From a virus (lineage: Duplodnaviria > Heunggongvirae > Uroviricota > Caudoviricetes), in IMG/VR virus record IMGVR_UViG_3300033692_000022: a DNA stretch of 64,000 bases. One strand, 5' to 3'. A model generated the notes under the pieces. It was not told the origin of the DNA, did not search any database, and worked only from the letters and a program-made list of their open reading frames with translations. Each line of letters starts with the position of its first letter. Within the stretch, counting starts at the first letter, position 1. The position numbers and the translations under genes are program-made. This document shows, one piece after another, positions 16,639-61,746 of the stretch.

Positions 16639-17529
16639 ATGCCTCGGATACAAAAACTTATAGATGGTACATTTAAAAAAGTTGACAATAAAAGAGAAAG
16701 AGAACTACATGAAAAAATCGACCAGGAGATATTAGAAAGAATATCTGAAGATGATCGGATAGAGGATAAATTCACTAAAATAACAAATGATTTAGAGATA
16801 GATATAGATAATGTAGAAGAAGCACTTAACCAATTTATAATTGAACAAAATAATATAAATGATGAACTTAAAGATGAAATAGATACAGAAAGAAGTCAAA
16901 GACTTGAGGCAGATGACACACTCCAGTCCAATATAGATTCTGAAGAGAATGCTCGTAAATCAGAAGATCAAGCAATAAGGAATGCGATACAGAACGAAGC
17001 AGAAGAAAGAGCCTACGAAGACCAAAAACTTCATAATAAAATAGATGATGAGATATATGACAGAGAACAGGCAGATATAGAACTCAATGAAGTTATCAAC
17101 ACTGAAAGGTCCGAAAGAATAGAAGCTATAAACGATCTCGATTCCAGGCTAAGGCAGGAGATTGTTGATAGAGAAGACGCTGATAATTCTTTAGAGAAAA
17201 AAATAGAGCGCGAGACAAACGAAAGAAAACTTGATGTTAGAATCCTTAATCATAGAACAGATGAAGATACCATTCTTACAAATATGATAATGGATCTTGA
17301 CAGTGAGCTCCAATCTGAGACTAATGCAAGAGAAGCAGAAGACCAAGCACTGCATGCTAAGATAAACCAAGAAATAGCCGATAGAGAAAGTGATGTCTCA
17401 ACTCTTACAACAAATCTCGACAATGAAATACAAACTAGAGTGTCTGAAGTTAATAGACTTGATCAGAGAATAGATGATCATACTGATTCCAACAACTCAG
17501 ATCCGACAATAATCTACAGACTCAAATAG
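16639..17529 (+). CDS. Tail fiber coiled-coil repeat protein, N-terminal part of a split gene
   Basis: Acidic heptad-like repeats (LQSNIDSEENARKSEDQAIRNAIQNEAEERAYEDQ...). The same repeat continues in the −1 frame from 17487. Confidence 0.5.
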   Translation: MPRIQKLIDGTFKKVDNKRERELHEKIDQEILERISEDDRIEDKFTKITNDLEIDIDNVEEALNQFIIEQNNINDELKDEIDTERSQRLEADDTLQSNIDSEENARKSEDQAIRNAIQNEAEERAYEDQKLHNKIDDEIYDREQADIELNEVINTERSERIEAINDLDSRLRQEIVDREDADNSLEKKIERETNERKLDVRILNHRTDEDTILTNMIMDLDSELQSETNAREAEDQALHAKINQEIADRESDVSTLTTNLDNEIQTRVSEVNRLDQRIDDHTDSNNSDPTIIYRLK

Positions 17530-19080: not shown

Positions 19081-22000
19081 ATGGCAGGACAAAAGTTAGT
19101 ATATGATTACTATAGAGAAAGAAGAGGTAGCTGGTACTGGCTTAGCTCAAATCTAAGAGAATGGCTAAATAGCGACCAGGAAAATGTAGGATATACTAAT
19201 GAACCTCCAAATAGTAGCAACCTAGGTTCTGATAGTTATGCGGATGAAGCCGGATTTTTAACTAACTTTACAACAGCAGAAAAAAATGCTATAGCAGTAA
19301 CAAGACACAGAGGGTATACCAGAGGTGTTGATAGTTCCGTAAAGGATGGTGGGAGTACTGATTTAAACTTTTCTTCGTCTTTTGATACTCCATTTGCTAA
19401 CTATTATTGCTCGGGTGTTGAAGATAATTGGGGCTCTTTTAATTATAAAATTTCAGATGATAAAGTATTTTTATTTTCTCCAGTAGAAATTCACCATTAC
19501 TCACAAAGTAGAAATTTCAACATAAAAAAAGCGCCTTCCCAGTATATAAGAAATAAATATAATATATCTTCAAATTATATAAAGTATACCGTTCAGAATG
19601 GGGAGCACTACGACAGACTTTGCGCAATTAGCGATGAAGGAACATTCTCTTCTACTAACTCTGACTCTACAACAGGAATAGCACCTGCTATACATCTCAA
19701 ACCCGATTATACGTTGGATAGTGGGAAAAAAGTATCAAATTTAAAAGTTGGAGAAGAAGTCGTATTTGGTAATTATGGTGGACACCAAATATCGTGGATA
19801 GTAGTTAATAAAACTCCAGATGACTTTGCATTGCTCTGGTCAAAAGAAGTAATAACTTTAAAAGCATACGATTCTCCTAATGATGACTTCTCCTGGGAGT
19901 ATTCAGACCATATAAATTTCAGCAACTATGATGTAAATATAATTAACGACCTTCAAAAATGGTATCCAACAAATGATAAAACTTTACCGAGACTTTATCT
20001 TCTCAATGAAGACGATCTAAATTCAAGACAAGACGGCGGATGGACCTTAAAATTACAGGCAGAAGATACAGGGTCCGGCATAGAAAAGATAGTATTACCT
20101 GATGGTACCGAAGTTTATGATAACTACGCTGAATATTATATTACTGAAAATAAAAGATATTTCATGCACACTGTAGACAATGCTGGGAATAGAAATAATC
20201 TAACTATTCCAGTAAGTAATATAAACCCACCTTCTTCTGTGGACATCAACTCATCATCTGATGGATGGACTAATTCAGACGTAAATGTAGAGATAAAAGC
20301 ATCTAATGACGTAAATGATTATTATGCAAATGAAATAATAACAAATAGTAGAGACTGGTATGGTCCAGCTTGGCCGAATTCTATATCTTACACTGGAAAA
20401 ACCTTCAGAGTGACAGGTAATATAGAATTAATAGATCACAGCGCAGATTTAGGTAATGTAAGAGCAAATGTGGGTTTTAGATATATAAGAAGATATAATA
20501 AAAACGATGGGTACGACATATCGAATAGTTGGCCCACAATAGAACATTTTTATCTTAGGGATATTAACGGAACACAGGCTAGTTTTGATTTTGAATACAC
20601 AGTACCTGGGGATTATTATAAAGATATAAGGCCATTTTTACAGATTGGAGTAGCACATCATAATCATAATTATACAGTAAAATACACTAATGTTAAATAC
20701 GAATTACTTGATAAAAGTGACTTTGGTATAGATTACATCAAACTACCAAATGGTCAGAAAATATATCAAGACACTTATACAACCACAATCACAGAAGAGG
20801 GAACGTATACTTTTGAGGTTATGGATAATAGAGGCGTAGTTACATCAAGAACTATAGAGGTGCTGATAGAAACTAACCCTCCAGATCTAAATATAAGTCA
20901 GGAAGTAACCAAGAAAACCAATCAAAGTTATGACCTCATTGTAAATGCTTCAGATTCCGAAAGCGGAGTTAAAAGAATACTGCAGCCCAACGGCGAATGG
21001 GTTGAATCTGATTCTTTAAGGTATAATATTTATCAAAATGGAACCTATGAGTTTACAGCAGAAGATAATGCTGGTAATAGAAAAACTAAATCAATAACAG
21101 TATCAAATATAGACAAGACTAGCCCAGTAGACCCCAATATCCATGTAGTTGATAAAGGAGAAAATCACGTAACACTTAATTGGATAGCAGATGATACAGA
21201 GTCAGATATAGATTCAATCAGGTTATATTTCCAAGAATCAGACAGTGATGGTAATCATCTGAAAGATATAGATATCAACGGAGATGGAAACACAGAATAC
21301 GACGTTGATGTTACTGGCCAGGAATCATATACGATTAATGGATTAAATGATTACACATACTACAGATATTATTTAAGAGTGATAGATTCAGTAGACAATG
21401 TAAGAAATGACGGCTATCATACCGTAAGAACTCAAGACACTACGGGGCCAATAGTAGATATAACATCGCACAACGATAATACTAATATCGGATATATCGA
21501 CGGCAATCAACTCACTTTAAGCGGAACAGCAGATGACAATGGAGAGGTTGATAGAGTAATCTTAAACGCTTCGGGCGCAGTCACACTTAATGACTTAGTT
21601 ATAGACGACAGCTCACCAGAAAACTGGAGTTATACAAGATCATATCCCGAAGGTCATACAAGACTAGAAGTTAAAGCAATAGACAAAGCCGGCAACGAAT
21701 CGGATGCCAAGTATATAGAATTTGATGTAGATACTGAAGCTCCTCAGATTGTATGGAATAATCACACAGATAAGAGCTGGCGCAACACTGTACCTGATGT
21801 CCACACTAATAATATAGATATAAACTCTGGTATTAGCACCTCAAAACTAGCAGTAACCTCAAATACAACTAAACCTTCCGACTGGATTAATGACTCCTCA
21901 CCTAGTAACACATACTTCCAAAACACATTAGAAGGAAAACCAGATGGTGAATGGTACTGTCATGTTGAAGTAACAGACAACAACGGCAACAGTACTTATA

Positions 22001-22830
22001 GTTACCAGGGACCATTTAAGATAGACAGAAGTGAGCCTACACATGTGTCACATTCCATATCTGGAGCAGATTATGTAAGAGATAATAATTACTATGTTAA
22101 ACCTAATAGGGAATTTTATATAGAAGTAGAGGGAGAAGAAAACACACTCCTTTCTCATAACTACCTAAATCTAAATGGTGACAACGTTGATATAAGAGCA
22201 TATCAGGTACTATCAGACGAATCATTTAATGAGTACAGAACAGGAAACTATGCTGAGATAATATCGGCTGAGAAGGTAAATTCAACAACTACAAAATTTA
22301 AAGTAAGAATAAAAGATAATGCACCTAACGGATTTATTTTCAATGTAAACGGATGGCACAAAAACGAGGCCGGCACATTAAGCAGATTCACTACTGATAT
22401 AGATATAATAGTAGATGCTAATCCTGCTCAAATGAATGGGTGGGAGATAAAGAACGCACCCTATTTCGATGGCAACACTTATTGGGGTAAACAGGGTGAT
22501 CAGATGACTTTTAACCTCAAGGGCTATGACGACGTAAGCGGGGCAAAAAGAGGTTACATTCAATTAGTTAACAAAGAGACCGGCGACGCCGAACACGCCT
22601 CATACAATAGGGATGAGGGCTATCTCAGCGATTCTAGGGAAGAGCCTAATGTAGATGTAACAACTGGTAGACTAATAAGCAGCGATGATAAAAATATGGA
22701 GATAGAGTTTGATTTTACTCTAGGTAATCAGCCGACAAATTATGACTTATGCTGGTACTGGTACGATAATGTTAAGAACACAATGGATTATACAGATACC
22801 GGCAAAGATATAGGAATAGAAATATCATAG
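19081..22830 (+). CDS. Giant Ig-like/FN3-rich tail fiber (1249 aa), truncated by a frame break
   Basis: It carries three copies of an approximately 90-aa Ig-like module (DSGSGIEKIVLPDGTEV...VDNAGNR; DSESGVKRILQPNGEWV...AEDNAGNRKTKSITV) and an FN3 module with a DINGDG loop. Confidence 0.5.
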   Translation: MAGQKLVYDYYRERRGSWYWLSSNLREWLNSDQENVGYTNEPPNSSNLGSDSYADEAGFLTNFTTAEKNAIAVTRHRGYTRGVDSSVKDGGSTDLNFSSSFDTPFANYYCSGVEDNWGSFNYKISDDKVFLFSPVEIHHYSQSRNFNIKKAPSQYIRNKYNISSNYIKYTVQNGEHYDRLCAISDEGTFSSTNSDSTTGIAPAIHLKPDYTLDSGKKVSNLKVGEEVVFGNYGGHQISWIVVNKTPDDFALLWSKEVITLKAYDSPNDDFSWEYSDHINFSNYDVNIINDLQKWYPTNDKTLPRLYLLNEDDLNSRQDGGWTLKLQAEDTGSGIEKIVLPDGTEVYDNYAEYYITENKRYFMHTVDNAGNRNNLTIPVSNINPPSSVDINSSSDGWTNSDVNVEIKASNDVNDYYANEIITNSRDWYGPAWPNSISYTGKTFRVTGNIELIDHSADLGNVRANVGFRYIRRYNKNDGYDISNSWPTIEHFYLRDINGTQASFDFEYTVPGDYYKDIRPFLQIGVAHHNHNYTVKYTNVKYELLDKSDFGIDYIKLPNGQKIYQDTYTTTITEEGTYTFEVMDNRGVVTSRTIEVLIETNPPDLNISQEVTKKTNQSYDLIVNASDSESGVKRILQPNGEWVESDSLRYNIYQNGTYEFTAEDNAGNRKTKSITVSNIDKTSPVDPNIHVVDKGENHVTLNWIADDTESDIDSIRLYFQESDSDGNHLKDIDINGDGNTEYDVDVTGQESYTINGLNDYTYYRYYLRVIDSVDNVRNDGYHTVRTQDTTGPIVDITSHNDNTNIGYIDGNQLTLSGTADDNGEVDRVILNASGAVTLNDLVIDDSSPENWSYTRSYPEGHTRLEVKAIDKAGNESDAKYIEFDVDTEAPQIVWNNHTDKSWRNTVPDVHTNNIDINSGISTSKLAVTSNTTKPSDWINDSSPSNTYFQNTLEGKPDGEWYCHVEVTDNNGNSTYSYQGPFKIDRSEPTHVSHSISGADYVRDNNYYVKPNREFYIEVEGEENTLLSHNYLNLNGDNVDIRAYQVLSDESFNEYRTGNYAEIISAEKVNSTTTKFKVRIKDNAPNGFIFNVNGWHKNEAGTLSRFTTDIDIIVDANPAQMNGWEIKNAPYFDGNTYWGKQGDQMTFNLKGYDDVSGAKRGYIQLVNKETGDAEHASYNRDEGYLSDSREEPNVDVTTGRLISSDDKNMEIEFDFTLGNQPTNYDLCWYWYDNVKNTMDYTDTGKDIGIEIS

Positions 22831-23369
22831 AGATAGATATTAATGTCGAGGACAGTCAGTCAGGAGTAAAAAGTGTCGAATACAAATTCGACCACAGCAC
22901 TCATTACTCTGGAGACAACTTAAGAACTACTGGTACTCAGGATACCCTCTTTATAGAAGCCCACGGTGAATGGTATCTTCATATAAGAGCAGAGGACAAT
23001 GCCGGGAATGTTGTAAGACAGACATTCGGTCCTTATGTTAATTACTCGGACCCTAAAAGATATATGAAGATCCAGACACCCGGCGGCGAACAGGAAATAC
23101 CACTATATGAACTCAATCAAAGAGTAGACAACAGGCTGAGAATAAAAGCAGCAGATGAAGTGGTATGTATAGGATTAGTCCCACCAGATGATAAGAGGGC
23201 AACAGAAATAAGAGTTAAGATGCCTGAAGCAATATATGCAGTAGAAGGGAACAGAAATGTATTCAGATTCTCAGAGATCGATCCTAACTTAAGTAATGAC
23301 TTTACTCTTGGGGAAGATGAAATAACAATAGATACTCAAAGAGGATTCGACGGTGGAGAATTAGTATAA
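22776..23369 (+). CDS. C-terminal continuation of the 19081 fiber in the −1 frame. It includes a fourth Ig-like module, and there is no start codon before 23064.
   Basis: The frame is open from 22776. It encodes DINVEDSQSGVKSVEYKF...HGEWYLHIRAEDNAGNVVRQTF, the same module as in the upstream ORF, with 290 nt lacking ATG/GTG/TTG. Confidence 0.5.
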   Translation, partial: EHNGLYRYRQRYRNRNIIEIDINVEDSQSGVKSVEYKFDHSTHYSGDNLRTTGTQDTLFIEAHGEWYLHIRAEDNAGNVVRQTFGPYVNYSDPKRYMKIQTPGGEQEIPLYELNQRVDNRLRIKAADEVVCIGLVPPDDKRATEIRVKMPEAIYAVEGNRNVFRFSEIDPNLSNDFTLGEDEITIDTQRGFDGGELV

Positions 23370-23383
23370 ACTAGGAGGCAGAA

Positions 23384-23791
23384 ATGAGTATATTAAATAA
23401 CTTACCCAACTGGAATGCACAGTCAGATAGGGTTGTAGAACCAGATAACGATAAGAAAGCAGCTGGGTGGAGGCTCGGTGAAGAGCCACCTCCTGGTTAC
23501 TTTAACTGGTTCTGGAATCTCGTATCCGATTCATTAAATATTTTAGATACACATAATCACGATGATAGATATTACACCAAAGGTTACTTTGATTCTCACG
23601 ATCATGACAGTTTATATTACAGAAAAGATTACATCGATTCTCACGAGCACGACGACAGATATTACACAAAAAATGATGTTAATAGTATGCTCGGGGCCAC
23701 CTATATTGAAAGCCCAACTGTTGGTAATATATTAGTATCAGACACCGAGCCAACTAATGCAGAAGAAAACGACATATGGATAAAGTTATAA
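23384..23791 (+). CDS. Short tail fiber protein: conserved N-terminal anchor domain plus HxHD-RYY histidine repeats
   Basis: LPNWNAQSDRVVEPDNDKKAAGWRLGEEPPPGYFNWFWNLVSDSLNILDTHNHDDRYYTK is shared with five other fiber genes. It also has repeats SHDHDSLYYRK and SHEHDDRYYTK. Confidence 0.45.
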   Translation: MSILNNLPNWNAQSDRVVEPDNDKKAAGWRLGEEPPPGYFNWFWNLVSDSLNILDTHNHDDRYYTKGYFDSHDHDSLYYRKDYIDSHEHDDRYYTKNDVNSMLGATYIESPTVGNILVSDTEPTNAEENDIWIKL

Positions 23792-23804: not shown

Positions 23805-25667
23805 TTGGGATATATAACACCAGATAAATCACCGGGTATATACATGGACCCGATTACTGTCAACTTTAGTGTTGATAGCAGGGTAGTAAATATAGCAGAA
23901 ACTCAGGATGGCAGCAACCCAACAATAGCAAAATATATAGCATATGATAATCTAAACCCACCTAATCCATTCATAGCGACCGTACAGGACGGCAGGGGTA
24001 ATGTTCTGTTCGATGGTGGATTTCCAAAATACTACAATATGAGAGTAAATTCTTCCTGGACTTCATTTTCTCAACTTAATGATACATTTAAGTATTTTCA
24101 TAATGCTTTAGATTGGATAGCAAACGATGATAAGGTATCAGAAGGTAATCGTAAGATGTTATTTCTTGGTGATTCAAACCCTGGAGAATCTTACAACATC
24201 AAACAAACAGGCGGCAGTGATTTTAAAACATCTATAGAAACAATGTGTACTACTGGTAACTGGGACCCTACCTATCTGACAAGAGAAGATTTCAGCGGCG
24301 GCCAAATCGATTTAAGTTATGCTGATTTAGAGCCTTATGTTGGCGTATTCCTGATGTCGAGTAGGCATACATCTAATAGATATATAACTCAATCAACTGT
24401 AGATAATCTATTGGCTTTTAGAGAAGCCGGTAACGGTATGTTTATCATAACAGACCATGGTTCTAGTGCAGACAACGGTTTTTATAGAACTGCTAATTTC
24501 ATAGCTGAAGAACTTGGGGCTCAATTTTTAGGATATTATAATAGATCACCTGTTAATGTTGGTTTCTTAATAGATAACTACGGTAATCATCCTTTATGGT
24601 CTGGTATGGATAGGAGTGGATATGTCCACGCTGGAAGTTCGGAGTCTGAAATAATTGTAGATGAAACACCAACTACTACAACAGCAGACTCTCTTACTGT
24701 AAGTGAACAGGGTTTTAAGACAGCAAGATTCTTAATAGAGCTCGATACAGGAGAAAAGGTATTTGAAACATATTCCTACGGATTGAATGCTGGAGACCCT
24801 ATTACTTTCAATAACGATATTCAAAATGGAGAGCTTAAAATAGGATTCGGCAGAACTATAGATTTAGATTTCGATATAAATTTAGGAATAATGGACAGCG
24901 CTTCAGGGCTAGTAAGAAGGAACAGCGATGTAATAGCTCAGTGGTCAAAAGACAGCGGCGGAATGACAACAGAATGGTTTACCGAAAGTGGTAACAGTAC
25001 CATTAAGGTAGATGATGGGGACTCAATAAAGGTAGCCTTACAGTCTCCAGTCTATTATGCAGAGTCTTTTACTATTAATGCAGCACCTCGAACTTCGACA
25101 GCCATCGACATAAACCTCGAAGATAAGACAAGTAAATACATTTCACTAAGCTGGACCTATGATAGCAGGATAGAACTAGACCATCTCGAGCTTATCTTTT
25201 TAAAAAGCGACGGATCACAGATAGATATAGATGATGACGGTACATTAGAAGATAGGTTAAACCTCAATAAAAGCCTATCATTTAGTGCAAGTAATCTTGA
25301 GCCGGCAACAGAATATAAGTTCAAACTAAGAGTATATGATGTTAACGGCGGCAGTTTAGACAGCAGCTATTATACAGCTAAAACAAACGGAGTACTTAAG
25401 ATACTTGTCGATAATACCTACAAGATACCACGCAACGCTCTAGTAAAAAAAGGAACAGGCTGGTCGAATTTTACAACTCAAATAAAGAATAACGGAGAGT
25501 TTGAGGAAATCGACATAGGGCCTACGATACAAACTTCCATGTTTACTACTGACATGTGGACAGAGTTTTCAAAAGAGGTGCGGGCAATCCACCTGTTAGA
25601 TAATGACTCTGATCTATATGGCAGCAGCCTTGATATTATAGATGTAATAGACTCCTATGGAATATAG
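23805..25667 (+). CDS. Tail protein paralog A, part 1: N-terminal hydrolase-like domain (GDS / TDHG motifs), FN3 module, beta-rich region
   Basis: TTG start after ribosome-binding site AAGGAGGCAG. It is approximately 75% identical over its N-terminal 260 aa to the 27431 ORF. It contains LFLGDSNPGES and FIITDHGSSADNGF. Confidence 0.45.
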   Translation: MGYITPDKSPGIYMDPITVNFSVDSRVVNIAETQDGSNPTIAKYIAYDNLNPPNPFIATVQDGRGNVLFDGGFPKYYNMRVNSSWTSFSQLNDTFKYFHNALDWIANDDKVSEGNRKMLFLGDSNPGESYNIKQTGGSDFKTSIETMCTTGNWDPTYLTREDFSGGQIDLSYADLEPYVGVFLMSSRHTSNRYITQSTVDNLLAFREAGNGMFIITDHGSSADNGFYRTANFIAEELGAQFLGYYNRSPVNVGFLIDNYGNHPLWSGMDRSGYVHAGSSESEIIVDETPTTTTADSLTVSEQGFKTARFLIELDTGEKVFETYSYGLNAGDPITFNNDIQNGELKIGFGRTIDLDFDINLGIMDSASGLVRRNSDVIAQWSKDSGGMTTEWFTESGNSTIKVDDGDSIKVALQSPVYYAESFTINAAPRTSTAIDINLEDKTSKYISLSWTYDSRIELDHLELIFLKSDGSQIDIDDDGTLEDRLNLNKSLSFSASNLEPATEYKFKLRVYDVNGGSLDSSYYTAKTNGVLKILVDNTYKIPRNALVKKGTGWSNFTTQIKNNGEFEEIDIGPTIQTSMFTTDMWTEFSKEVRAIHLLDNDSDLYGSSLDIIDVIDSYGI

Positions 25668-26824
25668 GACACTGCAGACTTAATATAACAGAACCACCAC
25701 CTCTTGTAGCAAACGATGACTCATTTGAGATATACGAGGGTGGATATATAAATATTTATAAATCTCAGATGTTAGACAATGATTACGATGAAAGCGGGAA
25801 CGAACCAATCGAAATCATAGGTTTCTCTGGTGTTACTGGAGGAACACTAACCGAGTACGACAACTACATTAGATTCGATGTAACAAGTCAGGTAGGAGAA
25901 CCTGCAGAGTTTAAATATACAATAACTAACGCAGTAGGCATAGAAACTACAGCCTATGTAAAGTTAATTATTAAAAAGGGACTTATTGCAGGAATAGATA
26001 ATACTGATTCATATAAAGATATCGAAAAGACCATTCCTATTTCAACCCTCGACATAACAGACATTTCAGAAAACCCACCAATTAAGTTAATAGGTGTTAC
26101 AGATCCAAGCGGCGGAACAGTAACCTTTGACGATTATAACATCTATCTTACCTCAACAGCTGCGGCTGGCAGTAATATTTCATTCAATTATACAGTGCGA
26201 AATGATATTAATCTTACAGATACAGGAACTGTTAATGTGAAAGTTATGCCTACTCCTCAGATACAAACAGCTGATGATACATTCGAAGTTACCCAGGGTA
26301 ATCAGATATTGATTTCTAAATCTGGACTCACCAATAATGATACAGATGAAGGAGGATATTACCCACTAACAGTAACCAATGTATACAACGTAACAGGTGG
26401 AACACTTGATGTAAGCGGAGATACTATTACATTTACTTCTACAAGTCTTGCGGGAGAAGCCGCAGGTTTTAAGTATGATGTAGAAAACACTCAGGGCGTA
26501 ACTCAGACAGGAAATGTATATATCACTGTTAATCCACTTCCAGCCGTAGACTCCTTAATTTTTAGCGACGCACAAACAACCCAGGATAAGCTAAACGAAT
26601 ATACTCCTGATAGTATGCAGGACGTATTTACAAGCTGGTATAGATTCTCTCATCAAGGCGGGAATATACAGGTCAACCCTCTTACTATGTATGACGGCAC
26701 TACTCAATACGATTTATATAGCGAAAATATATGGAAGTACCACGCCGATGAAGATAGAATAGCCTGTCAGCAGAATACTCCTCAGCATGTTGGCTTTCTT
26801 CGCCGGGTGGAGATGATGACATGA
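25634..26824 (+). CDS. Tail protein paralog A, part 2, continuing part 1 in the −1 frame. The track ATG is at 25769.
   Basis: The frame is open from 25634 and encodes NIGHCRLNITEPPPLVANDDSFEIYEGG. This aligns to YIGHCEIKTSQTPNLVAMDDSFEVYEGG of the 28206 ORF, with no start codon upstream of 25769. Cadherin-like or Ig-like repeats follow. Confidence 0.45.
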   Translation, partial: YYRCNRLLWNIGHCRLNITEPPPLVANDDSFEIYEGGYINIYKSQMLDNDYDESGNEPIEIIGFSGVTGGTLTEYDNYIRFDVTSQVGEPAEFKYTITNAVGIETTAYVKLIIKKGLIAGIDNTDSYKDIEKTIPISTLDITDISENPPIKLIGVTDPSGGTVTFDDYNIYLTSTAAAGSNISFNYTVRNDINLTDTGTVNVKVMPTPQIQTADDTFEVTQGNQILISKSGLTNNDTDEGGYYPLTVTNVYNVTGGTLDVSGDTITFTSTSLAGEAAGFKYDVENTQGVTQTGNVYITVNPLPAVDSLIFSDAQTTQDKLNEYTPDSMQDVFTSWYRFSHQGGNIQVNPLTMYDGTTQYDLYSENIWKYHADEDRIACQQNTPQHVGFLRRVEMMT

Positions 26825-27411
26825 TCGGTATAGTTTTAGCCTATACTGAAACTTCTAATCCTTATGATGAACATACACTCATAGCTCAAAGAACTCACGG
26901 GGGGATAGGCGGAGGCGAATGGGCTATAATTTATAATAAATCAAAATCTGGGGATAGTGTGATAATAAACGATAGCATATCTGGTGATGATATAAGTGGG
27001 GGTTGGAGTGGAGATCGCACAAGAGTAAGAGCTGAGAGAGAAGGAAATATCATAAAAGTATATGCTTCTCCAATGAATTCAACTACTCTTGATCCAAATT
27101 CAATGTTCGAAATAGATTTAAGCTCAGATAGTAGACTCCACAAATTTATGGACGGAGGATCATACGGGTATTGTTGTTTATCACAGGACAGATCAACATT
27201 TACCGATATACAGTTCGAAGGTGGATTAGACAAATCCATAATCTTAGATATTGAAAATAATATAGTCTGGGAATATAGCTTCGAACAAAGCCAATGGATA
27301 GATACAGGAAGAACTATTCAGGACGAAATAGGATATGTAAGAGAGGTATATAATCCAAACACTGGTGATAGATACCTTGTTAAAGAAAACGAAATAATCA
27401 AAATGACTTAA
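26758..27411 (+). CDS. Tail protein paralog A, part 3, continuing part 2 in the −1 frame. The track ATG is at 26821.
   Basis: Upstream in the same frame, SPGGDDDMIGIVLAYTE aligns with SSNGDNDVIGLVIAFDRD of the 28206 ORF. The C-terminal YVREVYNPNTGDRYLVKENEIIKMT is nearly identical to the paralog B C-terminus. Confidence 0.45.
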   Translation, partial: NSLSAEYSSACWLSSPGGDDDMIGIVLAYTETSNPYDEHTLIAQRTHGGIGGGEWAIIYNKSKSGDSVIINDSISGDDISGGWSGDRTRVRAEREGNIIKVYASPMNSTTLDPNSMFEIDLSSDSRLHKFMDGGSYGYCCLSQDRSTFTDIQFEGGLDKSIILDIENNIVWEYSFEQSQWIDTGRTIQDEIGYVREVYNPNTGDRYLVKENEIIKMT

Positions 27412-27430
27412 GGAAAAGGAGGGGAATTTT

Positions 27431-28228
27431 ATGGGATACGTAATACCAGATAAACAACCTGGAATATATAAAGAACCATTTACTGTAGATTTTAATGTAG
27501 ATAGTAGTGTATCAAATGTAGTAGACACTCAAGATGGAAGCAATCCGACCATAGCAAAGTATATAGCATATGACAATTTAAACCCGCCAAATCCATTTAT
27601 AGCAACAGTTCAAGATGGTAAGGGTAATGTATTATTCGATGGTGGCTTCCCTAAGTACTATAATCACAAATGTGATACATCTTGGAGTTCGTTTTCCGAC
27701 CTTAATAACACCTTTAAGTATTTTTATAATGCTTTGAATTGGATAGCAAATGAAGAAAAAGTAGCTGAAGGGAATCGCAAAATACTTTTTATAGGAGATG
27801 CTATTCCAGGCGAGCCTTACAATATAAAAGAAACTGGCGGTAGTGATTTTAAAACATCAATAGAAACAATATGTAGAGTTGGGAATTGGAACCCTACTTA
27901 TAAGATAAGGACTGATTTTCCTAATAATCAAATAGATTTAAGCTATACAGACTTAGAACCTTATGTAGCGGTATTTCTAATGTCAAGTAGACACACTAGC
28001 ACTAAACATATCACAGATAGTACAGTAAATAACATGCTTGCCTTTAGAGAAGCAGGCAACGGTATATTCATGATTACCGATCATGGATCAAGTGCAGATA
28101 ATGGTTTTTATAAAACTGCTAATTACATTGCAGAAGAACTTGGTGCACACTTCATTGGTGATTATGATAGAACTCCAGTTAACGTAGGCTACCTTATCGA
28201 TAATTATGGCAACCATCCATTGTGGTGA
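27431..28228 (+). CDS. Tail protein paralog B, part 1 (hydrolase-like N-terminal domain)
   Basis: Ribosome-binding site AAGGAGGGGAATTTTATG. It matches paralog A residues 1–265 closely (IAKYIAYDNLNPPNPFIATVQDG identical). It ends at NYGNHPLW*, where paralog A continues. Confidence 0.45.
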   Translation: MGYVIPDKQPGIYKEPFTVDFNVDSSVSNVVDTQDGSNPTIAKYIAYDNLNPPNPFIATVQDGKGNVLFDGGFPKYYNHKCDTSWSSFSDLNNTFKYFYNALNWIANEEKVAEGNRKILFIGDAIPGEPYNIKETGGSDFKTSIETICRVGNWNPTYKIRTDFPNNQIDLSYTDLEPYVAVFLMSSRHTSTKHITDSTVNNMLAFREAGNGIFMITDHGSSADNGFYKTANYIAEELGAHFIGDYDRTPVNVGYLIDNYGNHPLW

Positions 28229-31200
28229 GACTCCTATATCTACCAGCACAGACCCTCTGGTAGTTGATCAGTCAGGCTATAAAACAGCAAGGTTTTTGAT
28301 AGAGCTAGACAATGGAGAAACTAAATTCGAAAGTTATTCTTATGGGTTAAATACTGAAGAGCCGATTGTATTTAATCACAGCCTAATAGATAATAAATTG
28401 GATTTAGGACTTAAGCGAGATTTCAATTTAGATTTCAGTATAGTACTAGGAGTGATGGACAGCGCCAACGGGTTTATTAAAAGAAATAACGAAGTAGTTG
28501 GCCAGTGGTCGAAAGACCAGACTTCTTTTGATAAGACCTGGTTTACCGATAGCGGCACCAACAATATTAAAGTAGAACTAGGAGATTTAATAGAAATAAC
28601 ATTAGAAGATCCTTTGTATTACAGTAAATCAATGACAATAGATGGTAAAGAGCCTATCTTAAATACGTCTCCGCAATCTAGTGGTAACTATGTGGCTCTT
28701 GAATGGGATGTTAGTGATGGCTCACAGGATTTCACATATATGCTTCACAAAAAGAAGTCCTCAGATAGTGTATTCCAAACTATACCAGCTAAAGAAAACC
28801 TTAAGATACTTAATGTATATCCAGAAAATGGGGTAAGTGAAACAATAACCTTCACAAACTGGAAAGGAGAAACTACGACAACCTTAAAATCTGCCTCCCT
28901 AAAGAAATGGATGGAAGAACCAAATAACACACATTCAAAAGGATGGGGTAAAGGCCTTATAGATGTCGATATAGTTTCATTACTGGACTTTAATAATTCA
29001 CCAGACAGTTATCTTAAGACTAATGGCAGTTATGACTATGATGTTGTAGTATTTGGAACCTGGGATTGTAATGGAGATTGCTCAAGCGGTGGAGATACTA
29101 GCGCAGCTGCGGCAGCAAGCATAGAAACTTTCATCAAGACGGGCAGGGGTGTTCTACTCGGTCATGATACATTACACAAAAACCATCCTAATTTCAATAG
29201 TCTTGTTAGTTATTTTAATGTTACTTTAGATACAACGGGTATAGGATATACAGAACTTGAAATAACTAAAAAAGGATTACTCACCAACTATCCCTGGTAT
29301 ATAGGAGATATCGGAGATAAACTATCTATTCCCATGGCACATGTAACCAATCAGATGGCGCATGGAGATGTATGGTTTAAATTTACCGATGACACCTGGG
29401 GTGGTTATGACTATGTTGCTAATGACCTAACAAGAAATTTTTATCTTACTACATGGAATAATACTGCCTTAATTCAGACCGGTCACAGTGATGCTCAGGC
29501 GACTTCTGATGAACAGAAACTACTTGCTAACACACTATTTTATCTAGGTCAGGTTACAACCGCAACTAGCTGGAATGATATGTCCGGGCAGGATCTCGCC
29601 GGGCCAGAAAAACCAGTCATAAATAACGTAAAAATAAACCAAGACACTAAGAAAATAGAAATAGATTACAGTTCTCCAAATGATAATGGAACCACATATG
29701 ACTACTACGTTACTGCAAAAGGTAGTGAAGGATTAACAACCCAAACCAACACTTCTACTTGTACTATAAAAACAAATATTGCCGGTTATTCAATATTGGT
29801 AGATGACAGTCCAAGTAGTGTGCCCAATAACGATATAAACACTACAGAAACTTCATATGATTTGGAACATGAAAAATATGATAATTTCTATGTCCATATT
29901 GCAGCAGTAGATAATGCAGGAAACATATCAAAAACCTCACACTATCATTATACAGACAATACCGCTCCTGATTTAGATTTAACACAAAAAATATCAGAGT
30001 GGACACCTACAGAAGAAACTATAGTTGCTGAAGCTACTGATATAGGGTCTGGGGTTAGCAGAATACAACTCCCTAACGGTGAGTGGGTTAATCAATCAAA
30101 AGTAGAATTTAAAGCCACATCAAATGGTGATTATACTTTCACTGCAGAAGATTATACCGGCAACAGAACAACAAAGACTATTACCGTATACGGAGTTGGA
30201 CCAGAAAGTAATCCATTAATAAATTTAAAAATAACAGAAGTTACAAGTAGTACCATAGACCTTAGATGGGAAATATCAGAAACCATAGATGTAGACTATA
30301 TAAATTTAATGTTCCTCAAAAAAGACGGAGAAGAGTTTAAAAATATAGATATTAATGGTGACGGCTCTATAGATGATTATCTAAATATAAACGATGCAAC
30401 TTCATACAGTGTTAATAAACTCGAGCCCAGAACAGAATATTACTTTAAAATAATAGTCTATGACAATGACCAAACTCAGATGAGCAGTGCTTTATTGTCG
30501 GCAAAAACAAAAGGGCTAATAAAGGTAAATAAGAATGGCAGTTTCAAAATAGCAAAAGATGTACTCGTTAAAAAGAATAATGACTGGGAGTCCTTTAGCG
30601 GTAAAATAAAGAAGGACGGTAAACAGGTTAAGGTAGATATAGGTACTACAATTAAAACAAATCTATACGAAGAAGATGTCTGGCCGGGCTTCGAAAAAGA
30701 AATAAGGGCCATTCACTTATTAGAAGATGATAGTGATATATATGGAGATACTGATCTTAATATTGTCGATATCAAAAACGTATACGGAGGGGATGCCGAA
30801 TTCGTAGGAAGCGATTCTCTGGTAGAAACATCAGTAAACTTTAGAAATAATGCTGAGATAGGAGAAACTGCTGGTTTTACTTATGTAGTAGAAAACTCCA
30901 GAGGTAGAAGATATATCGGGCATTGTGAAATAAAGACATCTCAAACTCCAAACTTAGTAGCAATGGATGACTCGTTTGAAGTTTATGAAGGCGGATTTGT
31001 TGATATATATAAGTCGCAAATACTAGCCAATGATTATGATACAGAAAATAATACTCCAATAGAAATAGTAGATGTATTCGATGCAAAAGGTGGGACTCCT
31101 ACTGTATATGATAATTATATTAGATTCCAGGTGAATGATGAAATTGGAGATCCTGCTCAATTTAGATATACAATCAGAAACTCAATAGGTCAAGAAACAA

Positions 31201-32696
31201 CTGCATACGTAAAATTACTAATCAAAAGAGGATTAAAAGCTGAAGATCAAACTCTAACTGGTTATAAAGGAAAGGAAAAATTAATTCCTCTATCGCAGTT
31301 AAATATTACAGACCTATCAGAGTCGCCTCCATTCGAAATCACAGAGATTAAAGATACAGCAAATGGCAGCTTGATAAGTTATAACAAAGATGAAATAAGA
31401 TTTGTACCAACTGGAGAGATCGGCGAGGAAGCTAGTTTCGTATATCAAGTCAAAAATCAAACAGAATTAATTGATGAAGCCAAAATTACTCTAACCATAG
31501 AAGAGCCACCACAGATAACCTGTAATGACGATTTATTTGAAGTCACTCAAGGAAAAGAACTTATAATATCAAAATCAAATTTAAGCGATAATGATACAGA
31601 CTCGAAGGGGTTATACCCTTTAAGTGTAACTTCAGTTAAAGAACCTATTGGATGTAGTTTGAGCACTGATGGAGATACCATAATAGTAACACCAATAGTA
31701 AATGCAATGGAAGAATGTGGGTTCAAATATGAAGTAGAAAATACCGAAGGGATAAAAGGTAGTGGTAATGTGTTTATTAATGTTAAGCCATTACCAGAAA
31801 TAGAAGCTCTAATTTACGAGAATCAAAACGAAATAGATAATGAAATCGAGAATATCGTACCTCCTACAATGAAAAATATATTTAATCAGTGGGATAGATT
31901 CGATGGGGATAATTTATACACAGCAGGCTCTAGTTATGATGGCAACGCCTCATCCTGGCAATTTAGTGAAAACCCGGACAGAGTGATACAACCCGTAAAT
32001 GTGGCGCCCTATAATGGGTTTTTAAGCAACAAAGAAGTAGACTTTTATAGTCACGAAGCAACGCTAACTTCTAGCAATGGGGATAATGATGTTATTGGTC
32101 TTGTTATAGCTTTTGATAGAGATAACAATAAAAATCATACGTTAAGTGTAATAATATCAAAAGGTGATCCTATACCTAAAAGCGGTTACGGTATTGTATA
32201 TGACTATGATTATACTCATGGTGGAAGAATTCATGATAGAGATTGGATTGTTGAAGAAAAAAATGTTATATCTACCGCTGCTGGGTGGAGTGGTAACAAA
32301 ATCAGAGTAAGAGTAGATAGAGATAAAGATATAATAAAGGTATATTGCTCTGGTTGGAATAATTTGTCAAGCTATAAGATAGAGTCAGAGATAGTTATAG
32401 ATTTAAATAGTGATCCAAGACTAGAACGGTTTAAAGGAAAAAAGAAATATGGCTACGGGAACTACTCTCAAGCCAATACCACATATTTAGATATAGATTT
32501 CAAAGGTGGTATTAACTACACTAAGATGTATAACTTCGAAACAGAAACTGTATATAAATATAATATAGATAGCAATTCTTGGGAGGCGACGAATACTACT
32601 ATCCAGGATGAATTAGGGTATGTAAGAGAAGTGGTTAACCCGAAAACAGGAGAAAGATATCTTATCAAAGAAAACGAAATAATTAAAATGACATAG
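28206..32696 (+). CDS. Tail protein paralog B, part 2 (1496 aa): beta-rich region, a ThuA/GATase1-like domain, Ig-like and FN3 modules, cadherin-like repeats and a C-terminal lectin-like domain
   Basis: Contains YDVVVFGTWDC...GRGVLLGHDTLH (GATase1/ThuA-like), EATDIGSGVSRIQLPNGEWV...AEDYTGNRTTKTITV (Ig-like module) and an FN3 module with DINGDGSIDD. The C-terminus matches the 26821 ORF. Confidence 0.5.
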   Translation: MATIHCGETPISTSTDPLVVDQSGYKTARFLIELDNGETKFESYSYGLNTEEPIVFNHSLIDNKLDLGLKRDFNLDFSIVLGVMDSANGFIKRNNEVVGQWSKDQTSFDKTWFTDSGTNNIKVELGDLIEITLEDPLYYSKSMTIDGKEPILNTSPQSSGNYVALEWDVSDGSQDFTYMLHKKKSSDSVFQTIPAKENLKILNVYPENGVSETITFTNWKGETTTTLKSASLKKWMEEPNNTHSKGWGKGLIDVDIVSLLDFNNSPDSYLKTNGSYDYDVVVFGTWDCNGDCSSGGDTSAAAAASIETFIKTGRGVLLGHDTLHKNHPNFNSLVSYFNVTLDTTGIGYTELEITKKGLLTNYPWYIGDIGDKLSIPMAHVTNQMAHGDVWFKFTDDTWGGYDYVANDLTRNFYLTTWNNTALIQTGHSDAQATSDEQKLLANTLFYLGQVTTATSWNDMSGQDLAGPEKPVINNVKINQDTKKIEIDYSSPNDNGTTYDYYVTAKGSEGLTTQTNTSTCTIKTNIAGYSILVDDSPSSVPNNDINTTETSYDLEHEKYDNFYVHIAAVDNAGNISKTSHYHYTDNTAPDLDLTQKISEWTPTEETIVAEATDIGSGVSRIQLPNGEWVNQSKVEFKATSNGDYTFTAEDYTGNRTTKTITVYGVGPESNPLINLKITEVTSSTIDLRWEISETIDVDYINLMFLKKDGEEFKNIDINGDGSIDDYLNINDATSYSVNKLEPRTEYYFKIIVYDNDQTQMSSALLSAKTKGLIKVNKNGSFKIAKDVLVKKNNDWESFSGKIKKDGKQVKVDIGTTIKTNLYEEDVWPGFEKEIRAIHLLEDDSDIYGDTDLNIVDIKNVYGGDAEFVGSDSLVETSVNFRNNAEIGETAGFTYVVENSRGRRYIGHCEIKTSQTPNLVAMDDSFEVYEGGFVDIYKSQILANDYDTENNTPIEIVDVFDAKGGTPTVYDNYIRFQVNDEIGDPAQFRYTIRNSIGQETTAYVKLLIKRGLKAEDQTLTGYKGKEKLIPLSQLNITDLSESPPFEITEIKDTANGSLISYNKDEIRFVPTGEIGEEASFVYQVKNQTELIDEAKITLTIEEPPQITCNDDLFEVTQGKELIISKSNLSDNDTDSKGLYPLSVTSVKEPIGCSLSTDGDTIIVTPIVNAMEECGFKYEVENTEGIKGSGNVFINVKPLPEIEALIYENQNEIDNEIENIVPPTMKNIFNQWDRFDGDNLYTAGSSYDGNASSWQFSENPDRVIQPVNVAPYNGFLSNKEVDFYSHEATLTSSNGDNDVIGLVIAFDRDNNKNHTLSVIISKGDPIPKSGYGIVYDYDYTHGGRIHDRDWIVEEKNVISTAAGWSGNKIRVRVDRDKDIIKVYCSGWNNLSSYKIESEIVIDLNSDPRLERFKGKKKYGYGNYSQANTTYLDIDFKGGINYTKMYNFETETVYKYNIDSNSWEATNTTIQDELGYVREVVNPKTGERYLIKENEIIKMT

Positions 32697-32707
32697 GAGG
32701 TTATTAA

Positions 32708-33325
32708 ATGTCGATACTAGGAGAATTACCAGATTGGGATGCGCCGTCTAATAAAATAATAGAACCAGATATAACTAAAAAAACTAGTGGCTGGAATCCA
32801 GGGGAAAGGCCTCCAGCCTACTATTTTAATTGGTTCTGGACGAGAGTATCAAACGCTCTAAAAATTTTAGACGCACACAATCACGATAGTTTGTATTATA
32901 AAAAATCCGAGATAGACAGCAAAATACAGCAATCAGTAGCAAGCAATGAAGACTTGGTAGAATCAATGTACCCAATAGGATCAATTTATATTAATGCAAC
33001 AAACAATACCAATCCTGGCACTTTATTAGGCTTTGGAACTTGGGAAAGATTTGGTGAAGGTAGAGTATTAGTCAGCCAAGATAGCACAGATGCGGATTTT
33101 GATGCAATTGGCGAAACAGGCGGAGAAAAAACACATCAATTAACTGAATCAGAAATGCCATCGCATAATCACAATTATACCAGAGTATCGGGAGGTTATG
33201 GAGGTGGTGGTCTTAATGTAGATGGCAGCACAAGTACAGTACCTACTAGTCTAGCTGGCGGCGATTCTCCCCATAACAACCTTCAACCATACATCACAGT
33301 TTATATGTGGGTAAGAATATCATAA
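32708..33325 (+). CDS. Tail fiber with conserved N-terminal anchor and a C-terminal phage tail-collar-like domain
   Basis: N-terminal LPDWDAPSNKIIEPD...GWNPGERPPAYYFNWFWTRVSNALKILDAHNHDSLYY. The C-terminal PIGSIYINATNNTNPGTLLGFGTWERFGEGRVLV...GGEKTHQLTESEMPSHNHNY...PHNNLQPYITVYMWVRI fits the Collar (PF07484-like) pattern. Confidence 0.55.
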   Translation: MSILGELPDWDAPSNKIIEPDITKKTSGWNPGERPPAYYFNWFWTRVSNALKILDAHNHDSLYYKKSEIDSKIQQSVASNEDLVESMYPIGSIYINATNNTNPGTLLGFGTWERFGEGRVLVSQDSTDADFDAIGETGGEKTHQLTESEMPSHNHNYTRVSGGYGGGGLNVDGSTSTVPTSLAGGDSPHNNLQPYITVYMWVRIS

Positions 33326-33355: not shown

Positions 33356-34129
33356 ATGGATAGCTTTTATCTTCCAGAATGGACCCCACCAGCCAATATG
33401 CTGGTGGAACCAGAGATTGAAAGAAGAAACCTAGGATGGGGCGCTGGAGAATCACCACCTGCAGGTGTGTTTAACTGGTTTTGGAATAAGACATATAATG
33501 CTTTAAAAGTAATAAGAGACCACGATCATGATGCAAGATATTATACTAGAATGGAAATGGGAAATATTATTTCCAATATGGCCCCAAAGGAACATGAACA
33601 CGAAGGTTCAGATATTATATCTAAAGTATCAGAGGCAGCAAATGCAGACGAGGCAACAAACTCACAAACACTTCAGGGCAGACCACCAGAACAGTTTGCC
33701 GACAATGTACACTACCACGATGATAGATACTACACAGAAGACGAGATCGATCAAAAGCTAGGCTTCAAATCCAACACTGGCCACACTCACAACTACGCGC
33801 CAGCAGAACACATCCATGATGATATATATAAAACTGAATCAGAGATAATTAATCTTGCCAAAGCAGTTAGCGTAGAAGATATATCAATAATCCAGGGGAC
33901 AATAGAAGACGGAGAGAAACTACCATTACCAAACGGCTACACTGAAAGTCAATGCAGTTGGGTAGTATCACCAAGACAGGTGGCCACAACCGGTAGAACT
34001 GACGGATATGACGATGGTAAGGGAATAAGATTCTATGCAGATAATGATCGTAACGTTATTGCTAGATTCGATGGGCTTGGTGAAGTTTCTGGTACTGCTA
34101 ACTTTATAGTTATAGGAGTTAAAAAATAA
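33356..34129 (+). CDS. Tail fiber with conserved N-terminal anchor and His-rich HxHD-RYY repeats
   Basis: N-terminal LPEWTPPANMLVEPE...GWGAGESPPAGVFNWFWNKTYNALKVIRDHDHDARYYTR. Further repeats KEHEHEGSD, VHYHDDRYYTEDEIDQKL, GHTHNYAPAEHIHDDIYKTESEI. Confidence 0.5.
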   Translation: MDSFYLPEWTPPANMLVEPEIERRNLGWGAGESPPAGVFNWFWNKTYNALKVIRDHDHDARYYTRMEMGNIISNMAPKEHEHEGSDIISKVSEAANADEATNSQTLQGRPPEQFADNVHYHDDRYYTEDEIDQKLGFKSNTGHTHNYAPAEHIHDDIYKTESEIINLAKAVSVEDISIIQGTIEDGEKLPLPNGYTESQCSWVVSPRQVATTGRTDGYDDGKGIRFYADNDRNVIARFDGLGEVSGTANFIVIGVKK

Positions 34130-34715: not shown

Positions 34716-35543
34716 ATGTCTTTTTTAGACCAACTACCAGAATGGAATGCACCAACAATGAAAATTCACACCCCAACTCCCAAGAAACAGGAAGAGGGTT
34801 GGAATATAGATGAAAGACCTCCTGCCGGTTATTTTAACTGGTTTTGGACAACTGTGTCTGACGCATTAAGAATCTTAGATACTCACAATCATGACTACAA
34901 GTATGTAATTAGAGGGGAAGACAATGTAATATCTTCTGAGATGATACAAAAAAACATCATCAATGAAGAACATTTTAGAGAAAATATAGACTTTAAACAG
35001 TTTATACCAGAAATAGACAGCCACCAGCATGATAACTATTTACAAAAAGACGGAGACACCATGAGTGGCCCTCTAAGACTTGGCGATAATTCAACACTAG
35101 TTAAAGAAACACCAAATGGAGATCACATTATAATAGATGAAAACGGTAGAGTATGGAACTCTGTTTACAATGATATCGCAGAACTTTATGAAGCTGACCC
35201 AAAAGTCAAAGAAGGCCAGGTACTAATCTGGGACGGAGAAAAAGTAAGAACAACATTTAAAGCAGAAGACGAGAGAGTTATAGGAGTATATTCAAATACA
35301 TTTGGATACTGTCTTGGAGGACAGCCAACTACTATTAATAAAGTTCCTATAGGTATTAGCGGTAAAGTCAAGACAAAGGTTAAAGGCCCAGTTAGACCAG
35401 GAGACCTCCTGACTACTTCAGAAATACCCGGGGTTGCTAAAAAGTCCGAGAATAAAAAACTTGGAACAATATTTGGTAAAGCCATGGAAGACATAGAAAA
35501 AGATAAGATTAAGACAATCTGGGTATTCATTGCGGTGATATAA
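34716..35543 (+). CDS. Tail fiber with conserved N-terminal anchor and a DGDTMSGPL fiber motif
   Basis: N-terminal LPEWNAPTMKIHTP...GWNIDERPPAGYFNWFWTTVSDALRILDTHNHDYKY. SHQHDNYLQKDGDTMSGPLRLGD is a recurrent phage fiber motif. Confidence 0.5.
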   Translation: MSFLDQLPEWNAPTMKIHTPTPKKQEEGWNIDERPPAGYFNWFWTTVSDALRILDTHNHDYKYVIRGEDNVISSEMIQKNIINEEHFRENIDFKQFIPEIDSHQHDNYLQKDGDTMSGPLRLGDNSTLVKETPNGDHIIIDENGRVWNSVYNDIAELYEADPKVKEGQVLIWDGEKVRTTFKAEDERVIGVYSNTFGYCLGGQPTTINKVPIGISGKVKTKVKGPVRPGDLLTTSEIPGVAKKSENKKLGTIFGKAMEDIEKDKIKTIWVFIAVI

Positions 35544-36374
35544 ATGGGATTATTAAATAATATACCGGGCTGGAATGCCCCAGAAGAAAAAGTAGTAGAG
35601 CCAAAACAGGTAAAAAAAGATAGCGGCTGGAATCCAGGAGAAAGACCACCCGCATATGTATTTAACTGGATGTGGAACATGGTATCAAATGCCCTAGAAA
35701 CACTGAGCAATCACTTACATGATGATAGGTACTCAAAGAAAGACCACACTCACAGCGTGACTGAAGTATCTGGTAAGATAGATAATGCAGCTTATGCTGA
35801 TAACGCAGACAAGTTAGATGGTAGAGACGCCTCGGATTTTGCCTCAAGTTCACACTCCCACCCCTACTCTCCAGAAAACCACACCCATGATGGAAGATAC
35901 TATAAAGAATCTGAAGTCAACAACCTTATAAATAACCTACAAAATGAAGTAAACAATCTTAAAAACCAATCTATGGATCTTGAAAATGTTTATCCAGTAG
36001 GATCGCTATATTTTAATGCAGTCAGCGGTCAAAACCCTGAAACTCTTTTAGGTTTTGGTAAGTGGCAGCGCTTTTCTAAAGGTAGAGTATTAGTAGGATT
36101 AGATGAAAGTGATGGTAATTTTAACGGGTTACAGGAAAGAGGAGGAGCAAAAACACACAGACTTACCGATGCAGAAATGCCAAAACACAAACATATCTCG
36201 CCTTATGGTGATACTTGGAACACTCCATGGGGGACATATGGTAACTGGAAAACAGGTTCTGGGGATTCAGATAGTGACAACCACTACCACTGGACAAGTC
36301 CAGCAGGAGGAGATAAGCCACACAACAACCTGCAGCCTTATATCACGGTCTATATTTGGCGCAGAACACAGTAA
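35544..36374 (+). CDS. Tail fiber with conserved N-terminal anchor, HxH repeats and a tail-collar-like C-terminal domain
   Basis: N-terminal IPGWNAPEEKVVEPK...GWNPGERPPAYVFNWMWNMVSNALETLSNHLHDDRYSKKDHTH. The C-terminal PVGSLYFNAVSGQNPETLLGFGKWQRFSKGRVLV...GGAKTHRLTDAEMPKHKHI...PHNNLQPYITVYIWRRT is paralogous to the 32708 C-terminus. Confidence 0.55.
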   Translation: MGLLNNIPGWNAPEEKVVEPKQVKKDSGWNPGERPPAYVFNWMWNMVSNALETLSNHLHDDRYSKKDHTHSVTEVSGKIDNAAYADNADKLDGRDASDFASSSHSHPYSPENHTHDGRYYKESEVNNLINNLQNEVNNLKNQSMDLENVYPVGSLYFNAVSGQNPETLLGFGKWQRFSKGRVLVGLDESDGNFNGLQERGGAKTHRLTDAEMPKHKHISPYGDTWNTPWGTYGNWKTGSGDSDSDNHYHWTSPAGGDKPHNNLQPYITVYIWRRTQ

Positions 36375-61670: not shown

Positions 61671-61706
61671 TTTAGTAAATGAAATATAAAAATGTAATAA
61701 AAACGT

Positions 61707-61735
61707 TTGACATCTATGTTTCATTATGCTATAAT
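61707..61735 (+). promoter_or_regulatory. Second consensus sigma-70-type promoter (TTGACA–17 nt–TATAAT)
   Basis: ttgacaTCTATGTTTCATTATGCtataat, sharing the GTTTCAT spacer core with the 50163 promoter, 12 nt upstream of the nuclease gene ribosome-binding site region. Confidence 0.6.
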
Positions 61736-61746
61736 AAATATATCAG

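Follow-up and report, generated by a model that had tools for sequence, protein, structure and literature searches.

Paralog B, the second of two tandem tail-fibre-like paralogs (A and B) with a common, highly conserved N-terminal module (N-module), occurs in the virus record IMGVR_UViG_3300033692_000022 (Caudoviricetes) as two overlapping open reading frames (ORFs), B1 and B2, that lie in different frames. Comparison of the 64,000-nt stretch analysed here (the window) with related phages suggests that a 62-bp out-of-frame deletion, both genuine and recent, has split this redundant fibre gene, leaving a truncated N-module of 265 aa and a 1,496-codon remainder that is probably silent, an account that we favour with some reserve. 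Rather than a programmed frameshift, the junction between the two frames most likely represents an ordinary lesion of the gene.

The upstream ORF, B1 (27431–28228), encodes 265 aa and ends NYGNHPLW, while the downstream ORF, B2 (28206–32696, 1,496 aa), lies in the +1 frame relative to B1 and begins MATIHCGETPISTSTDPLVVDQSGYKTARF. At the junction the B1 frame reads aat tat ggc aac cat cca ttg tgg TGA, with the stop at 28226–28228, followed by gac, and the 28206 frame reads ATG gca acc atc cat tgt ggt gag act cct; the letters of positions 28215–28232 are ccattgtggtgagact. The +1 frame is open already from 28188, and its first ATG, at 28206, arises within the Tyr-Gly codons TAT GGC of B1, 20 nt upstream of the B1 stop, giving an ORF overlap of 23 nt. 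After the junction the +1 frame reads ETPISTSTDPLVVDQSGYKTARF and shows no secondary stop over its 1,496 codons. To judge from its composition and homology, an open frame of this length at 36.6% guanine plus cytosine (GC), homologous along its length to paralog A and to the intact gene of a relative, is not the product of chance.

Paralog A is continuous at the corresponding point, where its ORF 23805–25667 reads ...NYGNHPLWSGMDRSGYVHAGSSESEIIVDETPTTTTADSLTVSEQGFKTARF. In the DNA alignment B is 62 nt shorter than A, and it shows an identical gap against L086, a contig of the best relative found (L086/L087; N-module 84% identical to B, DNA ~72–77% identical to the window). The loss amounts to 21 residues (A 266–286) and, because 62 is not a multiple of three, shifts the frame. 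Since the 265 codons upstream of the junction align with A without a gap (76.6% identity), the first indel between A and B is the frame break itself, and the change of frame and the indel are one event. B1 matches residues 1–265 of both A and L086, and B2 matches A residues 283–619, A2 and A3, as well as L086 residues 283–1266; beyond the N-module A and B are only 40–45% identical. The A-like gene of L086 is intact, encodes 1,266 aa and reads HPLWNGMARSDSISAGGSESEIIVDETPTTTTADSL across the junction point, and no copy of B is present in L086/L087. All factual statements on the junction in a preliminary description of this DNA, namely the termini, starts and frames of the two ORFs, the continuity of paralog A and a deletion of ~20 aa at the +1 junction, were borne out, and its suggestion that the junction originated in a deletion agrees with the 62-nt gap that B shows against A as well as against L086.

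At the deletion ends, ATTGTGG of B resembles the 5' flank TTTATGG and the 3' flank ATTGTAG in A. Slippage between these 7-nt repeats was set aside as the cause of the deletion, as it predicts a loss of 61 nt and not 62, and with A and B only ~74% identical it amounts to speculation; a search for local repeats at the junction was negative.

The segment lost from B is the last conserved block of the N-module, and the most conserved one at its C-terminal end, HPL[YW]-x8-10-AG-x-SE[SGA]-x-V/I. Its conservation was followed through ~147 homologous loci, 80 from IMG/VR and 67 junction-covering loci from JGI/ENA metagenomes; a single-protein related-locus search in viral contigs returned nothing, whereas alignment-based scans did find loci. 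All 80 IMG/VR loci and all 67 metagenome loci run in a single frame through the junction, for at least 66 codons beyond it or to the contig end, and a stop or change of frame at the junction was seen in none of them (0/80 and 0/67). A scan of 110 sites for the pattern HPL[YW]-x8-10-AG-x-SE[SGA] found it in 107. Of the remaining three, two are spurious matches out of frame and one reads ASASES, which leaves 107 of 108 genuine sites, and in loci beyond this set the motif was seen by eye in their listed tails. Because the homologous loci, A and L086 keep the block in one frame, the deletion in B is, as far as these alignments can tell, the derived state.

Profile comparison leads to the same protein family. 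B1 matches phrog_11065 with E = 9.1e-91 (residues 1–265 on profile positions 1–297 of 631), and A matches positions 1–467, so the profile extends past the break in B. A tblastn search with B1 found 78 phage records at 31–49% identity, which are "virion structural proteins" of phiKZ-like, Ralstonia and Salicola jumbo phages; a PDB sequence search was negative. The fold of the N-module combines an Ig-like domain with a GATase1/ThuA/IFT52-like alpha/beta domain, and in annotated phiKZ-like and jumbo phages the module lies inside single genes of 600–1,735 aa. B1 resembles members of the family such as PhiPA3 gp235, RP12 gp285 and SCTP-2 gp99 in its profile match and common fold, but in all family members examined the frame stays open across HPL[YW]...AG-x-SE[SGA] and leads on to additional domains, whereas B stops at HPLW and has the block deleted.

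Comparison of the N-modules of A and B gave a proportion of nonsynonymous differences (pN) of 0.135 and of synonymous differences (pS) of 0.735, the latter saturated, with a ratio of nonsynonymous to synonymous change (dN/dS) of ~0.05. Conservation is highest in the 53 codons that directly precede the break (pN 0.083). These values argue that the N-module of B was functional for essentially all of its history. Since purifying selection is strong right up to the junction and B2 has no secondary stop, the lesion would be recent, tolerated, or not real.

Gene starts were scored by their match to the 6-nt core of the Shine-Dalgarno (SD) sequence, with 37 normal gene starts of the window as reference. 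Normal starts scored 6/6 in 27 cases, 5/6 in nine and 4/6 in one (at least 5/6 in 36 of 37), while the ATG at 28206 scored 3/6, and an SD-led, well-spaced in-frame start was found nowhere in the first 380 codons of B2. Genuine coupled gene pairs of the window have ATGA or 1-nt overlaps accompanied by an SD, unlike the 23-nt overlap of B1 and B2, which has none. A scan for promoters and terminators was negative and showed no promoter enrichment.

These figures bear on a functional fission of the gene, in which both halves would be working genes, one for an N-module protein of 265 aa and the other for a fibre protein of 1,496 aa, ribosomes from the UGA at 28226 scanning back 20 nt to the AUG at 28206; the reinitiated product would begin MATIHCGETPISTSTDPLVVDQSGYK, or (M)ATIHCGETPISTSTDPLVVDQSGYK. 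Bacterial ribosomes can reinitiate at nearby starts after termination, as in the scanning model of Adhin and van Duin. No other start codon than this AUG, ~20 nt or less from the stop, is present near the head of the +1 frame; B2 is uninterrupted over its 1,496 codons, and the cut falls near the end of the conserved N-module. Fission nevertheless seems improbable, as the AUG has no SD and the overlap geometry is unlike that of the coupled genes of the window, the ATG being an accidental product of the conserved TAT GGC. None of the ~147 loci ends its N-module at HPLW or lacks the AG-x-SES block, so that a free 265-aa product is not a natural form. The cut, moreover, does not fall in a linker and removes a conserved strand (A residues 280–285), and B2 alone would lose the only strongly conserved part of A, B and the relative (77–84% identity, against 40–45% elsewhere). 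Reinitiation at the ATG at 28206, which the preliminary description had offered as one explanation, is not supported by these comparisons.

The same description had also offered a +1 frameshift at UGG-UGA. In its fuller form, this proposal holds that a fraction of ribosomes at the stop shift either +1 (next codon GAG) or −2 (tRNA-Trp on UGU, next codon GGU), giving an N-module-fibre fusion beside the short product. The fusion junction would read ...GYLIDNYGNHPLW(G)ETPISTSTDPLVVDQSGYK, i.e. ...HPLW(G)ETPISTSTDPLVVDQSGYK, the version without G denoting a +1 shift and that with G a −2 shift. The UGA at 28226–28228 does stand in the A site directly after UGG, exactly at the junction, and a shifted product would be colinear with A (...HPLW(G)ETPISTSTD). 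As read from the sequence, a −2 slip would keep the first two codon positions (U and G) paired with the anticodon CCA. In a shift from P-site UGG to the +1 codon GGU, on the other hand, the tRNA-Trp anticodon pairs at the middle position only and re-pairing is not possible. No SD-like stimulator hexamer is present upstream in ggcaaccatccattgtgg, no downstream structure stands out (the fold of 28223–28330, 108 nt, has z = +0.37, and 118 of 200 shuffles fold at least as well), and Rfam gave no match at the junction. The site is absent from the ~147 homologous loci and from paralog A, its junction shares no common slippery motif with the other five breaks of the window, and the fusion would still be without the conserved AG-x-SES block. 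Recoding at this stop is thus very improbable, and of the +1 proposal only the A-site stop holds; a −2 slip (UGG to UGU, two base pairs kept) is conceivable only as low-level noise.

Known systems of this type are the +1 site CUU-UGA-C of prfB (RF2) and that of Listeria phage PSA, in whose structural genes +1 frameshifting is reported to occur beside a stop codon (Zimmer et al. 2003). The likeness to B lies in a UGA occupying the A site where the frame turns +1 and in short and long products that share an N-terminus. The B junction differs in that its P-site UGG cannot re-pair in the +1 frame, in having no SD-like stimulator, pseudoknot or hairpin, and in not being conserved. Two further schemes were rejected: reassignment of TGA as a sense codon, as further stops follow in the B1 frame within 14 codons, and translational bypassing of the T4 gene 60 type, an intron or an intein, as B is 62 nt shorter, not longer, than its homologs.

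The closest protein-database homolog, P0001 (57% identity), is encoded on two near-identical Illumina contigs from biogas fermenters, L004 and L005. Its gene (L004 1498–2942; also in L005) carries an in-frame TGA five codons past HPLW, reading HPLWDNMS, stop, DGYVYAGGSEAEVV, after which the frame goes on for ~210 codons; a −1 break is also present after codon 8, downstream of a perfect SD and ATG. Because the codons aligned with this TGA are Arg in both A (AGG) and L086 (AGA), it is a simple nonsense change, and from its sequence the gene is read as a second damaged copy, in another phage, with one lesion almost at the B site. The chance of a lesion falling within ~6 codons of the B site is roughly 2–3%.

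The coincidence could be taken to mean that the end of the N-module is itself a recoding point, where a UGA would yield much free N-module and little full-length fibre, through a +1 or −2 shift at UGG-UGA-GA in B and through read-through of UGA-GA in L004/L005. In its favour, the UGA of L004/L005 lies five codons from the same point and is likewise followed by GA. If this were true, the other breaks of the fibre cluster would hint at unusually shift-tolerant translation of these genes. We give the idea very little credence: in L004 the stop results from an ordinary nonsense change, AGA to TGA, and the gene is broken a second time, near its start.

A different kind of explanation is that assembly, sequencing or amplification introduced the lesion and that the true genome has an intact B, with the 62–63 nt present or with an in-frame 63-nt deletion. 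The window holds six frame breaks within ~17 kb, five in fibre-like genes and one in a VWA gene. At least one of them is a classic homopolymer lesion, at the run of four T at 11449–11464, and this single-base lesion means that the sequence quality of the window is not to be taken for granted. Every broken piece is otherwise fully open, as expected of non-biological lesions. At the B junction, however, the context ttgtggtgag contains no homopolymer, and a single-base error cannot remove 62 bases. The one-base insertion error considered in the preliminary description may have occurred, but it fails on its own to explain the junction, as taking one base out leaves the 21-residue block missing. 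Nor has the block been displaced: the window holds the HPL[YW]...AG-x-SE[SGA] motif once, in A, with no misplaced copy elsewhere.

The distribution of the breaks also argues against an artefact. Those at 22830, 25667 and 26824 likewise coincide with missing segments of non-3n length relative to intact relatives, and since four breaks in all coincide exactly with 55–125 nt missing relative to intact homologs, which is not a base-calling pattern, they point to deletion events rather than base-calling errors. All six are confined to 11.4–28.2 kb, and a scan of coding potential and SD sequences detected no further breaks in the other ~47 kb. This restriction to fibre-like genes and one VWA gene fits real lesions that survive only in dispensable genes. 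An artefact is, on these grounds, unlikely, though it has to be kept in mind.

The comparisons described above have led us to favour a model for paralog B in which one ancestral long tail-fibre-like gene of ~1,780 codons would have undergone an internal 62-bp deletion, leaving the scar at 28223–28229. Ribosomes entering at the strong SD and ATG 27431 would stop at the UGA and release a truncated 265-aa N-module. B2, because it has no ribosome-binding site of its own, would be silent, or would yield only traces through reinitiation at AUG 28206 or a spontaneous slip at the stop. The lesion would be evolutionarily recent, or the gene dispensable, and it would be one of several lesions of this kind in a cluster of redundant fibre genes.

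A precedent for such a split is the side-tail-fibre gene stf of laboratory lambda (lambda PaPa), which is divided by a frameshift into orf401 and orf314 and is intact in Ur-lambda (PMC12617516, citing Hendrix & Duda 1992). The likeness covers one fibre gene seen as a pair of neighbouring ORFs that differ in frame but together follow one continuous ORF of relatives; a downstream piece without translation signals of its own; a recent lesion with otherwise intact pieces; and a phage with other fibres, so that the gene is plausibly dispensable. The case of B differs in that its lesion is a 62-nt deletion that also takes a conserved motif, and in that several adjacent fibre genes of the window bear similar lesions. 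For B, moreover, no intact allele is known. The lambda lesion is reportedly a single-base frameshift.

Several points weigh against a genuine deletion in a decaying gene. That B2 has kept a fully open frame of 1,496 codons would equally fit continued expression. A set of four deletions (55–125 nt) beside only about two single-base lesions forms an odd spectrum for spontaneous mutation, and the deletion itself, as judged from the assembled sequence, could be an assembly artefact. The interruption in L004/L005, five codons from the B junction, could hint at a site-specific cause. Finally, the ancestral junction of B is reconstructed from its paralog and an A-like relative: as intact counterparts it has only paralog A and the A-like gene of L086, from a phage ~75% identical at the nucleotide level, and no ortholog of B was found by searches with the exact protein in contigs, a junction 33-mer in viral contigs or a 46-mer in genome contigs. 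In protein searches the best match to B1 reached 57% identity, and for B2 (first 400 residues after the junction) the matches were bacterial DUF5057 proteins only, which cover an insert in B2 and not the junction.

For annotation, B1 and B2 are best entered together as a single disrupted fibre gene (pseudogene or split gene) rather than as separate genes or a site of recoding, and it would be wrong to regard the 265-aa product as a form in which the phrog_11065 family naturally occurs. The six frame breaks in the virion and fibre region, whether of the genome or of its assembly, call for caution before biological claims are made. If the lesions are real, they would record the recent loss of several redundant fibres and would bear on host-range evolution in an uncultured jumbo-type phage of Clostridia. 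Features of the junction and the six breaks are collected in the table.

Table. Features of paralogs A and B and positions of the six frame breaks in the window.
Feature	Position	Strand	Remarks
SD of paralog B (aaggagggg)	27416–27424	+	6 nt upstream of ATG 27431; 6/6 SD core class
B1, N-terminal piece of paralog B, ends HPLW-TGA	27431–28228	+	Ig-like and GATase1/ThuA-like module, phrog_11065
First ATG of +1 frame	28206–28208	+	No SD
Deletion scar and frame junction: TGG (Trp265), T, GAG	28223–28229	+	GAG is the first codon realigning with A and L086
B2, rest of paralog B in +1 frame	28188–32696	+	DUF5057-like insert, FN3, Big_9/cadherin-like repeats, C-terminal tail-fibre domain
62 nt of A without counterpart in B (encodes SGMDRSGYVHAGSSESEIIVD)	24600–24661	+	Holds family-wide AG-x-SES motif
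Paralog A	23805–27411	+	Continuous at B junction point; broken at 25667 and 26824, giving three frames
Break i	10679–11464 / 11449–13407		−1 at T4 run (cagttcattttgtaa); VWA domain starts before any start codon
Break ii	16639–17529 / 17487–19064		−1 in coiled-coil fibre-like gene
Break iii	19081–22830 / 22776–23369		−1; ~17 codons missing relative to continuous gene of relative L087
Break iv	A at 25667 (25634–25667)		−1; 41 residues of L086 missing
Break v	A at 26824 (26758–26824)		−1; ~17 residues of L086 missing
Break vi	B at 28226		+1; 62 nt missing

None of the downstream pieces of the six breaks has an SD-led start. At break i, one extra T restores ...KYEQFIFVIDKSGSM (...FIFVIDKSGSM), a perfect VWA beta1 strand with the start of the MIDAS. 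Both the VWA domain (PF00092, from profile position 2) and the MIDAS motif DKSGS begin upstream of the first ATG, at 11482, which has no SD. As to its cause, the lesion is a mutation or else a one-base error in the homopolymer; FILVIDKSGSM would also result from a −1 slip at the UAA stop, with tRNA-Leu moving from UUG to UUU. At break ii a coiled-coil fibre-like gene appears to be split, with ...HTDSNNSDPTIIYRLK followed by a stop in the one frame versus ...RSDNNLQTQIDELDTML... in the other. The two sides of break iii, a 1,249-aa fibre-like ORF and ORF 23064–23369, correspond to one gene in L087 (310–1986); the missing codons are NPPAIEVSPETVMYKP, and a 233-nt "intergenic gap" is actually coding. 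The residues missing at breaks iv and v are present in the intact 1,266-aa gene of L086 (318–4118) and in B, and A and B are damaged in complementary regions. Overlaps at 13391, 49083, 51797 and 58415 were rejected as further breaks, as the ORF list takes the most upstream start and the real SD and ATG starts lie downstream.

The phage is uncharacterised, low in GC and of jumbo type, and a megablast search of 50,697 deposited phages revealed no near relative. Tail-fibre-like genes form a cluster between 16.6 and 38 kb. Within B2, the insert at window positions ~28650–29430 (B2 residues ~150–400) shares 53% identity with DUF5057 proteins from the bacteria Caproiciproducens, Ethanoligenens, Faecalispora, Ruminococcaceae CPB6 and related Oscillospiraceae. 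This similarity suggests that the insert is a host-derived adhesin domain and that the host is probably among the Oscillospiraceae (Clostridia). In L086/L087 the gene order is a 120-aa protein, the A-like gene and a 257-aa protein, with neither B nor a 205-aa gene; as this order lacks both, the pair formed by B and 32708–33325 looks like an added module.

Small proteins of one family are encoded at 23384–23791, 32708–33325, 33356–34129, 34716–35543 and 35544–36374. They carry the N-terminal tail-fibre motif "MSIL..LP.W.A....V.EP" (phrog_7389/2126), and two of them have Gp10_C-like C-termini. Further along the window, at 61670–61747, a sigma-70-like promoter close to the consensus (ttgaca, 17-nt spacer, tataat) precedes a gene at ~61747–61765, for which the ORF list starts at an upstream ATG and the SD-led ATG comes after it (gggggagacaaaATG).

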